A stretch of 64,000 nucleotides of DNA, taken from positions 512,001-576,000 of the forward strand of contig CAVSBQ010000002.1 in the NCBI GenBank assembly GCA_963726265.1. The letters are read 5' to 3'. How positions within the stretch are numbered: the first letter of the stretch is position 1; every line of letters begins with the position of its first letter. Under the pieces are notes generated by a model, which was given only the letters and a program-made list of their open reading frames with translations, did no database searches and had not been told where the DNA came from. Source of the stretch: Candidatus Aenigmatarchaeota archaeon (GTDB lineage Archaea; Aenigmatarchaeota; Aenigmatarchaeia; QMZP01; QMZT01). Made by a program: the position numbers and the translations under genes. Positions 3,175-7,639 of the stretch are shown here, piece after piece.

Positions 3175-3342
3175 ATGGAAAGTAAAAACTGCATGGAGTG
3201 CGACAGGAGCCACAACTCTGCCGCGCTTGTTGTCTGCAAAAAAACGAAAAAGCCTGTTTGCAGGGACTGCTGCACGAGGGCGAACGGCGGCTTCAGAAAC
3301 TGCGTTGACTGGAACTTCTGCTGGACCAGCTTTTACATCTGA
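3175..3342 (+). CDS. 55-aa Cys-rich microprotein (8 Cys), probable metal-binding protein
   Basis: MESKNCMECDRSHNSAALVVCKKTKKPVCRDCCTRANGGFRNCVDWNFCWTSFYI*; two CxxC pairs; convergent with primase (10-nt overlap). Confidence 0.6.
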   Translation: MESKNCMECDRSHNSAALVVCKKTKKPVCRDCCTRANGGFRNCVDWNFCWTSFYI

Positions 3343-4646
3343 GGGCGACGCTTTCTTTTGCCCGGCTTGTGAGTTTTATCGTGCCTTTCCTTCTCTGCCT
3401 TCTCCATGCCCCTGAGCGCGTAATTGAGCGGATTTTTCAGGCCCTTGCATTTCTCGTCCGGCTTGCATGCGCCGAAGGCCTTATACCATCCCTCGCCGCT
3501 GCAGTTCGGCGGCAGGACCTCCTTGTTTCTCGTCCTGTGCCACCTGACATGCGAACGGATGTAGCTTTCCGGCAGCGGCGGCTTGTTCTTGGCGTTCCAC
3601 TCGATGATGAACTTCTCGATGTCGTCCCAGCTCCATTTGGAGGAGCGCAGGAAGTTTAGCAGGATGAAAAGCGAGCGCTTCCTGCCGTCCGAAAGGCCAC
3701 CCAAGATGTTTTTCACGCACGGTGGGAAGCGTTCCAGAGGGACGGGCCTCGTTATCTGCAATCCTCTTCCGACGCGCTTCTCTTCCTTCTTCTTCATCCT
3801 CGCATGCCAGTCCAGCGCCTCGGCTATCAGCAGTTCGGCCTCGTTTTTCTCACCGTTGCCGAGGAAATGCGCATCGACCTTGACGTTTTCCGCCTTGGCC
3901 TGCATCCTTTCGAAGGCGTCGAGCCTTTCCGGCTTGAGCGGCAGGGAAACCAGAAACGTTTTTCCGTTCAGCGAGTAAGGCATGCGGAAAAGGTGCCTGG
4001 GCGATATGAGCACCGGGTCGACGTCCAGAATCTCGTATACGTTAAGCCCGTCGTCGGTGAGGATTTTGCCGAGCGGCTTGTTGACCTGGTGCGAAAGCTC
4101 CTCGGCCGAATATTTTTTGAACAGGTTTTTTTCCAGGCGCTCGAAGACGAAGTCCTTGAGATACATGACTATTTTCCTGGCGAGCTCGGGATAGAGGGAA
4201 ACGGACGGCTTGTAGTCTATGGTCTTGGGTATCGCTTCCCACGGGACGCCTAGATGGAAGCCGGTCCCGCCCGTGAATTTTATGGACACCCCGCGTATGT
4301 CGTGCTTTTTCAGGCCCCAGATGAACGCTTCGCTAGCGATTTTGCCGTGCTCGAAGAGCTTGCAGTCTATGTCCATTATAATATCCCAGCCCGTCCGCAG
4401 TTGCTCGTAGTTGTCCTGGCGCAGGCTCATGGGCTGCGACCAGCGCTCCAGCGACGAATGGAACTCGACTACGCCCGTCTTGACCATCGCGCTTATGTCG
4501 TTAGGATACAGCACGATGTTCGGCCGCTGCGAGAAACTTCCGCTGCGAAAGACGCCGACTACTTCCCTGTCCTTGCCGAAGTTGAGCAGGAAGTTCTGCA
4601 CGTCCTCGCGCGAGTAGTATTCGTATACTCTCCTCAGGTCCATCAT
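3333..4646 (-). CDS. Fused archaeal DNA primase (PriS catalytic domain + PriL C-terminal Fe-S domain)
   Basis: AEP motifs MDIDC, FTGGTGFHL, RHLFRMPYSLN followed by PriL-CTD motifs FPPCVKNIL, DGRKR, PPNC...C...C..KNP. Confidence 0.9.
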   Translation of the reverse strand: MMDLRRVYEYYSREDVQNFLLNFGKDREVVGVFRSGSFSQRPNIVLYPNDISAMVKTGVVEFHSSLERWSQPMSLRQDNYEQLRTGWDIIMDIDCKLFEHGKIASEAFIWGLKKHDIRGVSIKFTGGTGFHLGVPWEAIPKTIDYKPSVSLYPELARKIVMYLKDFVFERLEKNLFKKYSAEELSHQVNKPLGKILTDDGLNVYEILDVDPVLISPRHLFRMPYSLNGKTFLVSLPLKPERLDAFERMQAKAENVKVDAHFLGNGEKNEAELLIAEALDWHARMKKKEEKRVGRGLQITRPVPLERFPPCVKNILGGLSDGRKRSLFILLNFLRSSKWSWDDIEKFIIEWNAKNKPPLPESYIRSHVRWHRTRNKEVLPPNCSGEGWYKAFGACKPDEKCKGLKNPLNYALRGMEKAEKERHDKTHKPGKRKRRPQM

Positions 4647-4682
4647 AGGTATAGATTAATGGCAGGGATTAAATTATTTAAC

Positions 4683-5537
4683 ATGAAAGTCGTCTTTTCG
4701 CCCGAGTGCCTCGGCTACGACGCGCCAGGCCACCCGGAATCGAGCGAGCGCGTGCGCAGGACGCATTCGCTTCTCGCCAACTTCAGGGAGTTCGAGTTCG
4801 TCAAACCGGAGCCGTGCACGAGGCAGGACCTGCTTCTCATCCACTCTGCCAAAATGATAGACGAGATAAAGCACGACAGGTTTTTCAATCCGGAAACCCC
4901 GGCTCTCCCGGACATTTACGACTACGCGAAGCTCTCCGTTGGCGGCGCGCTGCTCGCCATAGACTTCGCGTTAAAAGGGGAGAAAGCATTCTCGTTGCTT
5001 CGGCCGCCCGGCCATCATGCAGGCAAGGCGAATTTCGAGGGCTTCTGCTACTTCAACAACGTCGCCATCGCCGTCGCGAAGGCGCTGAAAACGAAAAAAG
5101 TTAAGAGGGTCGCGATAATCGACGTCGACGTCCACCACTGCAACGGCACGCAGGCCATATTCCTCGGTAGGAAAGACGTGCTCGTCGCCTCGCTCCACCA
5201 GTTCGGGCCGTTTTTTTATCCGGGCACGGGCAAGCATTCTGAAAAGAACTGCCTGAACTTCCCGCTCGACAGCGGCACAGAGGAACCGTTATATCTCCAG
5301 AAACTCGAGGTCGCGCTCGAAGCAGTCGAGGCTTTCAAACCCGACCTCGTCGCTGTTTCAGCGGGCTTCGATACGCTCGACGGCGATCCGATAGCGAGCC
5401 TCAAGCTACAGGTCAGCACGTATTCCAAAATCTCGAAGCTGATCGTCGAACTGAAGAGACCTAGCTTCGCCGTCCTCGAGGGCGGCTACAGCCAGAAGCT
5501 GCCGGAATGCGTTTACGCCTTCCTGAAAAACTTTTAA
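4683..5537 (+). CDS. Histone deacetylase (HDAC/AcuC) family protein
   Basis: HPES, RPPGHHA, GFCYFNN, DVDVHHCNGTQ, SAGFD, LEGGY motifs; start at ATG 4683 (MKVVFSPEC). Confidence 0.95.
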   Translation: MKVVFSPECLGYDAPGHPESSERVRRTHSLLANFREFEFVKPEPCTRQDLLLIHSAKMIDEIKHDRFFNPETPALPDIYDYAKLSVGGALLAIDFALKGEKAFSLLRPPGHHAGKANFEGFCYFNNVAIAVAKALKTKKVKRVAIIDVDVHHCNGTQAIFLGRKDVLVASLHQFGPFFYPGTGKHSEKNCLNFPLDSGTEEPLYLQKLEVALEAVEAFKPDLVAVSAGFDTLDGDPIASLKLQVSTYSKISKLIVELKRPSFAVLEGGYSQKLPECVYAFLKNF

Positions 5538-5538
5538 A
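5526..5538 (+). promoter_or_regulatory. Putative BRE/TATA promoter for the thr leader-thrS transcript
   Basis: AAAAACTTTTAAA ends 22 nt before the leader ATG (5561), the spacing expected for a leaderless archaeal transcript. Confidence 0.6.
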
Positions 5539-5560
5539 CTTTCCGGCACAATTAACTTTC

Positions 5561-5626
5561 ATGAACTCCGGCAAGACCAAGAACGCTGACACAACAACCA
5601 CAACGACGACCACTACGACGTGTTAG
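5561..5626 (+). CDS. Putative thrS leader peptide (21 aa, 10 consecutive Thr)
   Basis: ATG AAC TCC GGC AAG ACC AAG AAC GCT GAC ACA ACA ACC ACA ACG ACG ACC ACT ACG ACG TGT TAG; all four Thr codons used; 117 nt upstream of thrS. Confidence 0.8.
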   Translation: MNSGKTKNADTTTTTTTTTTC

Positions 5627-5678
5627 TCCATGGTCCCGGCCGGACTGCTTCTTTCGGTTCTCGGCCAGCCTGGAGTTT
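5624..5678 (+). promoter_or_regulatory. Candidate attenuator RNA with alternative hairpins
   Basis: GGCCG-GACUG (5638-5647) pairs with CGGUU-cu-CGGCC (5655-5666), closed by UCCA/UGGA; alternatively UAGUCC (5624-5629) pairs with GGACUG (5642-5647). Confidence 0.5.
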
Positions 5679-5743
5679 AGGGCTTAGTTTGGATTGAAGT
5701 TAATTAATAACGGCGACAAAAAATAAAGGTAGGGTGATGGCGG

Positions 5744-7639
5744 ATGAAGATACTGTTGCTGCACTCGGATTTCATAGAATGGGAGCCGAAGGAGAAAGCG
5801 CTTTGAAAAGCGCTGCTGACATTGAGAAAAAAGTCAGCAACGTGAAAGAGGTTCTGGTCGTGTTCTCGGCGGTCGAAAAGACGGACGAAGGCAAGGAGAA
5901 GGTGATAATCGAGAAAACGACGGACGAAATACTCAAGGTCATGAAGGACGTGAAGGCGGAGAACGTCGTGATTTATCCCTACGTCCACCTCACAAGGAAC
6001 CCGTCATCGCCTTCTACTGCGATTGCAATCCTCGAAGGCGTCGAGAAGCATCTCAAAGGCAGCGGCGTGAATGTCTACCGCGCGCCTTTCGGCTATTACA
6101 AGAGGTTCACGATATCCGTGAAAGGCCATCCGCTTTCCGAGCTTTCCAGGGAAATCGTTGCGGAAGGCGAGGCGAAAACCGAAATTTCCAAGGCCGTGGA
6201 AAAGGAGAAGACGCTCGTATCCGAATGGTTCGTGATGGATCTCGAAGGGAAGCTGCACAAGCTGCATATCGAGGATGGCAATGTCCACGGCTTTGATTTT
6301 TCGAAACACAAAAACCTGGAGAAATTCGCCCATTACGAGATGGCGAAGTCGAGAATCGCTGACAAAGAGCCGCCGCATGTGAGGCTTATGCGAAAACTGG
6401 AACTGGTCGATTACGAGAGCGGCAGCGACCCGGGCAACCTGCGCTTCCTTCCCAAGGGAAGGCTGATCAAAGGCCTGCTCGAGGATTACGTGACGAGGAA
6501 AACGGTCGAATACGGTGCCATGGAAGTCGAGACTCCGATAATGTATGACTACGAGCATCCTGTGCTTAAGGACTATCTGAACCGCTTCCCGGCGAGGCAG
6601 TACACCATCGAGACGCCGAACAAACGCGTGTTCCTGCGCTTCGCCGCATGCTTCGGCCAGTTCCTCATGGCGAAGGACGCGAACATTTCCTACCGCAACC
6701 TGCCTCTGCGCATGTATGAACTCACGCGCTATTCGTTCCGCGTGGAGCAGCGGGGCGAGCTCGCAGGGCTTCGCAGGCTTCGCGCGTTCACCATGCCCGA
6801 TTGCCACGCCATGTGCAAAGACATCGAACAGGCGAAGGAAGAGATGCTGACGCGCCTGGACCTGGCGAAGGACGTGTTAACCGGCGTAGGAGTGCCGCTG
6901 GACGAGAACCTGGAAGGCGCGCTCAGGGTCGTGAAGGACTTCTATGACGACAACAAGGATTTCCTGCACAGGCTCGTGAAGAAAATCGGCAAACCCGTCC
7001 TTCTCGAAATGTGGAGCAAGCAGTTCTTCTATTTCGTGCTGAAATACGACCTGAACTTCGTGGACGCGCTGGACAAGGCCGCTGCCCTTACGACTGACCA
7101 GATAGACGTTGAGAACGCGAAGCGCTATGGCATAACTTACATGGACAGCGACAACAAGAAGAAGAACCCGATCATCCTGCATCTTTCGCCTTCGGGCGCG
7201 ATAGAACGCGTCATGTATGCGCTGCTCGAGAAGGCGGACATGGAGGCGAAGGCGGGCAGGAATCCCATGCTCCCGTTATGGCTCTGCCCCACGCAGGCGA
7301 GATTCATCCCGGTCTCGGACAAGTTCCTGAAGCAGACCGAGAAGCTCGCCGATGAAGTCGCCAGCGAAGGCATACGCGCCGACGTAGACGATCGCAGCGA
7401 GAGCGTGCAGAAAAAGGTCCGCGACGCAGAGGTCGAATGGGTTCCTTACTCAGTCGTTATCGGCGAAAGGGAGCTTGAGCGAAGGGAAGCTCGCGGTCAG
7501 GTCAAGGGAAACAGGCAAGGTCGAGACGATGTCTCATGAGGCGTTCGTCAAGATGCTGAAGAAGCAAACCAGCGGAATGCCCTTCAAGCAGCTGCCGCTT
7601 CCGAAACTCCTGACCAAGAGGCCGATATTCATAGGTTAG
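5744..7639 (+). CDS. thrS: Archaeal-type threonyl-tRNA synthetase, split over three reading segments by two frameshifts
   Basis: N-terminus [20 protein letters not shown] from ATG 5744 (SD-like GGGTGA at 5732-5737); editing domain YPYVHL and [39 protein letters not shown]-terminus GKLAVRSRE...[15 protein letters not shown] in a shifted frame. Shifts near 5801-5806 and 7474-7481. Confidence 0.93.

Follow-up and report, generated by a model that had tools for sequence, protein, structure and literature searches.

Could an archaeon use the translating ribosome to sense threonine and adjust its threonyl-tRNA synthetase (ThrRS) gene, thrS? The question is raised by a short threonine-rich open reading frame (ORF) just upstream of thrS in a 64,000-nt stretch of forward-strand DNA from a Candidatus Aenigmatarchaeota archaeon (contig CAVSBQ010000002.1, positions 512,001 to 576,000), which was analysed at its full length and is referred to here as the window. 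An original prediction, made from the letters of the window, had described this ORF as a cognate-codon leader of thrS. That description is supported by recurrence of the ORF in relatives, by its promoter, by the codon phase of its AC dinucleotides, by a covarying RNA fold and by a codon content that tracks the downstream gene. The reading favoured in this work, with moderate confidence, is that positions 5533-5743 hold the window's member of a leader family, specific to the lineage, that senses amino acids through ribosome stalling.

Leader ORF, recurrence and codon content

The leader ORF extends from ATG 5561 to a TAG at 5624-5626 and contains 21 sense codons, 11 of which encode Thr. Codon 6 is ACC, and codons 11-20 form a run of ten consecutive ACN codons (3 ACA, 2 ACC, 4 ACG and 1 ACT). 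With 117 nt between its stop and the thrS ATG (5744), the ORF agrees exactly, in coordinates and in codons, with the 21-codon ORF that had been predicted. A second in-frame ATG is located 5' of the ORF at 5507, within the gene for a histone-deacetylase-family protein. Thr contributes 5.1% of codons in the long ORFs of the window's genome. Among the short intergenic ORFs of this 1.13 Mb genome, 52 contain at least five identical residues within seven, and the full seven of seven is reached in the leader ORF only.

Recurrence was assessed using thrS loci from 40 relatives, with 330 nt upstream examined in 27 of them; the partial matches L027 and L029, together with L020 at a contig edge, were left out. 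A short ORF of the same design was present in 10 of the 27 upstream regions, consisting of an ATG, three near-constant codons, Thr from about codon 6, a TAG and then a conserved GC-rich segment. A first covariance model, built from these 10 copies, gave one match per genome in 18 of the 91 genomes of the order (one of them, G018, with two thrS contigs), and a broader model, accepting E values up to 0.1, matched 24 of the 91 genomes once each. By family, these 24 matches comprise 13 of 22 genomes in f1 plus the window's own, 7 of 47 in f5, 2 of 14 in f6 and the single genome of f2, with none of 5 in f3 and none of 1 in f4. The match in G050 is doubtful (E 0.08), and that in G078 is weak, its leader-like ORF being rich in Lys and Thr and lying ahead of a 63-aa ORF that matched nothing in Pfam and of a gene of the Fe-ADH family. 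A Thr-rich upstream ORF (uORF) before thrS in relatives, which had been set beforehand as a check, is therefore present, in two families of the order and before two types of ThrRS.

Beyond the order the leader was not seen. In a class-level sample of 151 genomes, covariance model matches fell inside the order only, with none in 125 genomes of other orders. A model-free scan upstream of thrS, requiring at least five in-frame ACN codons in eight, called none of 99 usable stretches outside the order Thr-rich (100 fetched, 56.9 kb) and recovered four of four positive controls. Among 80 named thrS loci from many archaeal phyla, eight contained an ACN window of this kind, namely seven known members and L197, where the window lies in presumed coding sequence. 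As judged from these sequences, the leader is a lineage-specific invention.

Within the order, 21 of the 24 genomes have thrS downstream of the leader in the same orientation, mostly directly and 90-107 nt after the leader stop. A small ORF or a gap separates the two in G016, G035 and G049, an aspartokinase gene in G076, and an aspartate-semialdehyde dehydrogenase (ASD) gene followed by a small ORF in G023. In G054 a LAGLIDADG-type, homing-endonuclease-like gene has been inserted between leader and thrS (L045:1640-2797). The gene upstream of the leader varies among genomes, which indicates that the leader unit travels with thrS. The leader also precedes a divergent type of ThrRS in G003, G004, G011, G015 and G016, the catalytic part of which is only ~27-31% identical to that of the window. 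Two ThrRS types were observed within one genus; in the divergent proteins of G003 and G004 (G003:C8:22897-24441, G004:C7:37035-38612) the editing domain is 45-50% and the catalytic part 27-28% identical to the window's.

The start, the stop and the Thr richness of the ORF are kept in relatives. In all 24 members an ATG at the position of a leaderless start and an in-frame stop are retained, although the ORFs take 11 different lengths between 12 and 31 codons. Thr makes up 147 of 374 leader residues. Thr decoding begins at codon 6 in 13 of the 24 members, and somewhere from codon 2 to codon 7 in 22. AC dinucleotides in the leader ORFs are concentrated in one codon phase (157 compared with 24 and 20 in the other two), in a count for which the ORFs at some loci were taken from an earlier in-frame ATG. 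All four Thr codons are used across the leaders (55 ACA, 49 ACG, 28 ACC and 25 ACT). Runs of 10, 8 and 6 consecutive Thr codons occur in close relatives, and the breaks in the runs are whole codons. The codon phase and the family-wide use of all four codons are in keeping with the earlier proposal of selection on Thr decoding, as opposed to a microsatellite.

The codon content of the leader follows the gene downstream. Leaders of thrS have 5-11 Thr codons in 17 of 19 cases, with few Lys or Met codons, the exceptions being G017 with two Thr codons and G049 with three; where thrS alone is served, Thr is almost exclusively the amino acid represented among the regulatory codons. Leaders located before aspartokinase genes (G036, G039, G042, G046, G047 and G076) and before the ASD gene of G023 instead combine Thr, Lys and Met codons. 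In G036 the scaffold, with an ORF rich in Met, Thr and Lys, precedes an aspartokinase gene (AA_kinase and ACT domains, E 8e-48) on a contig without thrS. Pfam likewise identified AA_kinase and ACT in the gene downstream of the G076 leader, and both semialdehyde dehydrogenase domains in that of G023. Homologues of the G036 aspartokinase were found in 13 of the 91 genomes and none in the window's genome (G000). The canonical family-f6 aspartokinases, 61-100% identical, have a leader and a leaderless-type TATA box in five of five cases; the distant aspartokinase of G076 also has a leader, and five other distant homologues with upstream sequence examined are without one. This comparison leaves out G043, a partial match, and G019, for which there was no locus.

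The aspartate pathway ends in Thr, Lys and Met, and a codon set that changes with the regulated gene is a hallmark of bacterial leader-peptide sensing. The dependence of codon content on the downstream gene thus points to leader-peptide sensing and would not be predicted by a free-standing peptide, a protein operator or a tRNA-binding RNA. This tracking, which the original prediction did not foresee, is the key result of the comparison and the strongest point for amino-acid sensing. The gene arrangements in G076 and G023 suggest that the thrS leader descends from the leader of a Thr-pathway operon. In G076 (G076:C24:3000-6300; L047, L248) a hom gene, the only Homoserine_dh match in the 91 genomes, was observed in divergent orientation to the leader-aspartokinase-thrS unit, and no leader precedes hom itself. 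The extension of the idea to cognate leaders of other aminoacyl-tRNA synthetase (aaRS) genes found no support in the window's genome, where none of 15 other run-bearing short ORFs lies before an aaRS-like gene, a judgement made by reading the proteins, with no family scan and no locus-by-locus check of every aaRS gene.

Promoter, RNA fold and proposed mechanism

The TATA-like element that had been claimed ahead of the ORF is present, as a TTTAAA beginning 28 nt 5' of the ATG. A TATA-like hexamer begins 28-31 nt before the conserved ATG in 22 of the 24 members, and in the two members outside this range a later ATG of a cluster had been chosen by the script. The tRNA-gene promoters of the window's genome are built comparably, TTTAAA being followed after ~10 nt by an AT-rich element, which lies ~5 nt before the start. 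In this genome 333 of 434 genes with free upstream space have no Shine-Dalgarno (SD) sequence. These genes show a TATA-like peak at -30 to -23, with the box centred ~27 nt before the start codon, and are AT-rich at -11 to -3, from which the genome appears to be dominated by leaderless mRNAs. The geometry of the leader promoter matches that of these leaderless genes, and the leader transcript probably starts at or next to the ATG. SD-bearing genes show no fixed TATA distance, and thrS has a strong SD, a combination that fits distal cistrons or long leaders.

To describe the RNA, the 10 copies were aligned with MAFFT and folded with RNAalifold, which returned 18 pairs in two helices, P1 and P2, and compensatory changes at seven of the pairs. 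P1 closes the fold by a helix in which the UG of the start codon and codons 2-4 pair with a stretch just 5' of the AT-rich box that precedes thrS, and P2 is an inner hairpin formed by 5638-5643 with 5661-5666. When 19 copies were aligned to the model, 90.1% of cells were paired compared with 77.7% in shuffles, and 12 of the 18 pairs had changes on both sides; none of 500 shuffles reached the observed values and slid controls gave 20-47%. These figures are upper bounds, since related copies were used and their alignment had been fitted to the model. Free-state folds contained a third element, hairpin A. Its 5' side consists of codons early in the Thr region (GACCA, GACUA), and its 3' side of the stop codon together with a conserved motif behind it that ends in UGGUC. 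The complementarity of the post-stop segment to the ORF had a z below -1 against its own shuffles in 16 of 23 members (mean z -1.56). The fold therefore overlaps the leader ORF, P1 holding the start codon and codons 2-4, and hairpin A holding Thr codons and the stop codon, with the Thr codons largely within the hairpin loop in the free fold. This structure became visible only through comparison.

When the region occupied by a ribosome at a Thr codon was masked, P1 and hairpin A were lost from the folds and P2 was kept. In the folds of G053 and G060 the P1 5' strand paired instead with the 5' strand of P2. No conserved pair of mutually exclusive helices, such as a terminator and an antiterminator, was definable in the member folds.

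These features suggest the following mechanism. Transcription would start at or next to ATG 5561, producing a leaderless mRNA on which a ribosome translates the 21-codon ORF. With charged tRNA-Thr plentiful, the ribosome would finish and leave, and the leader would fold into P1, hairpin A and P2. With charged tRNA-Thr scarce, the ribosome would wait at a Thr codon, the first being codon 6, where it would cover approximately the first 30 nt, including the 5' strands of P1 and hairpin A, so that the closed fold could not form. Given the loss of P1 and hairpin A from the masked folds, the closed fold would correspond to amino acid sufficiency and the open leader to starvation. In the starved state, as in known leaders of aaRS and aspartokinase genes, downstream expression from the leader promoter would rise. 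We infer that the ORF is translated, that ribosomes stall within it, that the response runs in this direction and that the output is read-through, RNA stability or translation.

Two outputs were considered and rejected. Masking of the SD, of the mycobacterial or erm type, received no support from equilibrium folding, in which no consistent change between the free and stalled states was seen. An oligo-T terminator within the leader was rejected since none is conserved and none is present in the window. Archaeal termination signals differ from bacterial ones, and a missing terminator therefore lowers the likelihood of membership in the bacterial type of attenuator rather than that of the sensing model. 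The output step might be factor-dependent termination governed by folding under ribosome control, decay of the RNA from its 5' end, or re-initiation.

Leader-peptide attenuation is a textbook bacterial mechanism that needs a ribosome closely behind the polymerase. The odds seem to us about even that the leaders described here represent the first archaeal ribosome-mediated leader-peptide sensing system, an Aenigmatarchaeota regulon in which one scaffold would serve thrS (Thr) as well as aspartokinase and ASD genes (Thr, Lys and Met). Given that the leaders lack a bacterial-type terminator, the output of such a system would have to use an archaeal mechanism not yet described. If true, archaea use the ribosome as an amino-acid sensor, and a single scaffold is re-tuned simply by codon changes. 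The leaders would also offer a compact natural test object for archaeal transcription-translation coupling and for the translation of leaderless mRNA, and would bring to light gene regulation in the DPANN archaea, a group with reduced genomes and, it is thought, few regulators.

Opposing evidence, rival explanations and feature table

The region immediately before thrS provides an argument that leader and synthetase might be separate units. Positions 5700-5729 fit the local promoter architecture of TATA box, ~10 nt and AT-rich element, and a promoter at this site would place a transcript start ~12 nt before the thrS ATG. The AT-rich box is conserved, and loci in which the uORF is deleted (L009-L011) still keep it together with the distal part of the conserved segment. 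At L030, where there is no leader and a tRNA gene diverges upstream of thrS, the synthetase gene must be driven from a similarly short region. On this basis the leader could be a separate small gene, encoding a Thr-rich micropeptide or a stable structured small RNA that ends before 5700, with thrS transcribed only from 5700-5729 and any link to thrS made in trans or by promoter interference. P1 would suit such a gene, as it joins the ends of an RNA of ~120 nt in the manner of many stable small RNAs, and so would the failure to define a terminator-antiterminator pair. This explanation is nevertheless rather unlikely. In G035, G036, G076 and G023 the SD and start of the next gene follow ~4-25 nt after the P1 3' strand with no promoter-like box between them, so that the leader must belong to the mRNA there. 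The change of codon content with the downstream gene is unpredicted by a free-standing peptide or RNA, and the unit stays just upstream of thrS despite changes of upstream neighbour and of ThrRS type. A thrS promoter at 5700-5710, which the original prediction had itself named as evidence that would count against a leader, may exist: the box matches promoter architecture and persists without the uORF, and is absent from these four genomes. In the window it might act as a second promoter and supply a basal transcript of the essential thrS. The two sets of observations can be combined into one coherent reading, in which thrS would have a basal promoter and a regulated upstream promoter, and the biosynthetic genes would depend on the leader promoter alone.

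Models that dispense with translation were also weighed. The ACN run in the loop of hairpin A might pair directly with the anticodon of tRNA-Thr, uncharged tRNA then remodelling the fold in the manner of a T-box; the location of the Thr codons in the loop and a variable third position that would suit wobble pairing are compatible with this. It is very improbable given the ATG at the leaderless start and the in-frame stop conserved throughout the family despite so many ORF lengths, the interruption of the runs by whole codons, the mixing of codons for three amino acids in the aspartate-pathway leaders, and the lack of any T-box or other Rfam match. Equally small is the probability we assign to a protein operator, in which thrS would be repressed by ThrRS or another protein bound to the folded leader, in the way known for ThrRS and its operator in E. 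coli. A hairpin with a loop like the tRNA-Thr anticodon precedes the SD of thrS in family f6, so the lineage may possess autoregulation. Against an operator, the window's leader has no anticodon-like loop, aspartokinase and ASD genes are preceded by this scaffold too, there with Lys and Met codons, and an operator would not explain the coding signature. A chance ORF or a functionless ACN microsatellite can be set aside almost entirely. The ORF is short and its run varies in length between close relatives, yet start, stop, promoter and flanking helices are conserved across two families, the run is the only one of its kind in the genome, and the 99 upstream stretches of other orders contain none. 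The comparative data already contradict this explanation.

Several further observations weigh against a ribosome-stalling leader of thrS. The longest T run in the window's leader is three, and there is no canonical archaeal oligo-T terminator; runs of at least five T are enriched after the genes of the window's genome (105 of 382, compared with 282 of 3000 background windows), and are found in only 6 of the 24 leaders, five times in the P2 loop and once in the doubtful G050. The mean probability that the SD is unpaired was 0.35 in the free and 0.37 in the stalled state, increasing in 4 and decreasing in 3 of 22 members. The 221-nt fold of 5540-5760 is not more stable than its shuffles (z +0.59). 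The element is dispensable, being absent, deleted or decayed in many genomes, with 67 of the 91 giving no match and G017 reduced to two Thr codons, and the copies are kin, so that the counts overstate independence. In L004, L005, L006, L008 and L054 the frame of an upstream ORF runs without a stop through the leader promoter and ends at the leader TAG, so that in these five relatives the Thr run can also be read as the tail of that protein. The single transcript that would join leader and thrS in the window is itself something we infer from the letters. The protein encoded by the upstream ORF of these five loci was seen to contain repeated SDY/SEY motifs.

The condition of thrS in the window is a further point of this kind. 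As assembled, the gene has a TG insertion at 5804-5805 relative to five of five aligned relatives, which creates a TGA and shifts the rest of thrS into the frame of GTG 5734 and ATG 5737. Among DNA contigs of four public runs, those of related strains in two have a net difference of -2 nt at the insertion site, which is not a difference in homopolymer length. The insertion may have arisen in assembly or may be a real lesion; alternatively, initiation at ATG 5737, with an unrelated N-terminus of 23 residues, would bypass it. Pfam identified the archaea-specific ThrRS editing domain, the class II core and the anticodon-binding domain in thrS, which is the only full ThrRS match in the genome.

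The genome containing the window consists of four contigs with many intron-containing tRNA genes, and in the named collection its nearest relatives by ThrRS bear the label Candidatus Aenigmatarchaeota (a DPANN phylum). The gene upstream of the leader, at 4698-5534, was assigned to the histone-deacetylase family by Pfam. On the minus strand, 3333-4646 contains an ORF of 437 aa with weak Pfam matches to the large and small subunits of primase, which may be a fused primase. The 20-nt segment found only in the window's copy (5680-5699) resembles a local duplication of the preceding AGTTTRG motif. Coordinates of the leader, its helices and thrS are collected in Table 1.

Table 1. Positions of leader, promoter, RNA and gene features within the window
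Feature	Position	Strand	Basis or remark
TATA-like box TTTAAA of the leader promoter	5533..5538	+	overlaps the stop codon of the upstream deacetylase-family gene
AT-rich promoter-proximal element CAATTAAC	5549..5556	+	like tRNA-gene promoters and genes without SD in the genome
Leader ORF, 21 codons and TAG	5561..5626	+	probably translated from a leaderless transcript, as judged from sequence
P1 5' strand, UG of start codon and codons 2-4	5562..5572	+	RNAalifold, covariation
Hairpin A 5' strand, GACCA and following codons	5575..5592	+	free-state folds, complementarity against shuffles
First Thr codon (codon 6)	5576..5578	+	a ribosome waiting there would cover the P1 5' strand; masked folds
Ten consecutive Thr codons	5591..5620	+	codons 11-20 of the leader ORF
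Hairpin A 3' strand, last sense codons, stop and post-stop motif ending UGGUC	5620..5635	+	folds, complementarity
P2 hairpin, GGCCGG, pyrimidine-rich loop, CGGCC with a G-U pair	5638..5666	+	RNAalifold, covariation
P1 3' strand	5668..5679	+	RNAalifold, covariation
20-nt segment only in the window's copy, between P1 and AT-rich box	5680..5699	+	gap in 8 of 8 aligned relatives
AT-rich box 5700-5710 and A-rich stretch 5716-5729	5700..5729	+	possible thrS-proximal promoter, or unstructured spacer of a long 5' UTR (untranslated region)
thrS Shine-Dalgarno GGTGAT	5733..5738	+	sequence, alignment
thrS, archaeal-type ThrRS	5744..7539	+	frame broken after codon 20 by the 2-nt insertion 5804-5805

Comparison with known systems

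Searches against described RNA families returned nothing that coincides with the leader. Rfam covariance models run over 4500-7000 with E values up to 10 gave no leader or T-box match, the only matches, two at chance level to mir-196 and COG3860 RNA (E 3-10), lying off the leader; ARAGORN found no tRNA in the window, and a scan for bacterial-type promoters and terminators is uninformative for an archaeon. A full-text search of the literature, in the portions of text it reached, found no archaeal leader-peptide attenuator described. The comparative data support the leader family as a form, specific to this lineage, of an already known type of regulation, and for Archaea the literature so searched yielded no described case.

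Control of thrS itself is known to occur by tRNA mimicry, at the operator of E. coli, or through a T-box in Bacillus, and neither uses a translated leader. The gene and the signal, the status of threonyl-tRNA, are the same as those proposed here; the window differs in having no anticodon-like loop by the ribosome-binding site and no T-box match. A structure closer to the E. coli operator was observed in family f6, where thrS genes without the leader ORF have a 6-bp hairpin with a 7-nt loop ending in UGUAA directly before the SD, and a second UGUAA/GGUAA motif 5' of it (L017:1345-1422, L019:1357-1434, L022:1357-1434, L023:1360-1437 and L024:3234-3311 on the minus strand). By its likeness to the anticodon loop of tRNA-Thr(UGU) and to the E. 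coli thrS operator, this hairpin may represent archaeal synthetase autoregulation by tRNA mimicry.

Among bacterial leader peptides, thrL (Rfam RF00506, Thr_leader) is the leader of the E. coli thr operon and controls an aspartokinase gene. It shares with the archaeal leaders a run of Thr codons and the control of aspartokinase, as the members with Thr, Lys and Met codons appear to exert. Unlike thrL, which mixes Thr with Ile, the archaeal aspartokinase leaders mix Thr with Lys and Met, and no RF00506 match was obtained. The E. coli pheM, the leader of pheST, provides the example of ribosome-mediated transcription attenuation of an aaRS. In both pheM and the window, a short ORF rich in cognate codons lies directly before an aaRS gene, and stalling is proposed to raise synthetase expression. 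However, pheM is SD-led and has a hairpin and U-tract terminator with a defined antiterminator, whereas the window has an archaeal leaderless-type promoter, no oligo-T terminator and a three-helix fold that the start codon helps to close; we do not propose that the two are related in sequence.

In the literature searched, as far as the accessible text goes, the closest described system is the mycobacterial 'ribulon' of leaderless poly-Cys short ORFs, in which stalled ribosomes are described as blocking a structure that sequesters the next gene's ribosome-binding site (10.1101/834739). The archaeal leaders belong to another domain of life, are built on another RNA scaffold and show no consistent masking of the SD in 22 members. 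Both systems place a short ORF, leaderless in the mycobacteria and probably so here, as the first cistron, carry a run of codons for one amino acid and set the same kind of sensor before several loci of a pathway (10.1101/834739).

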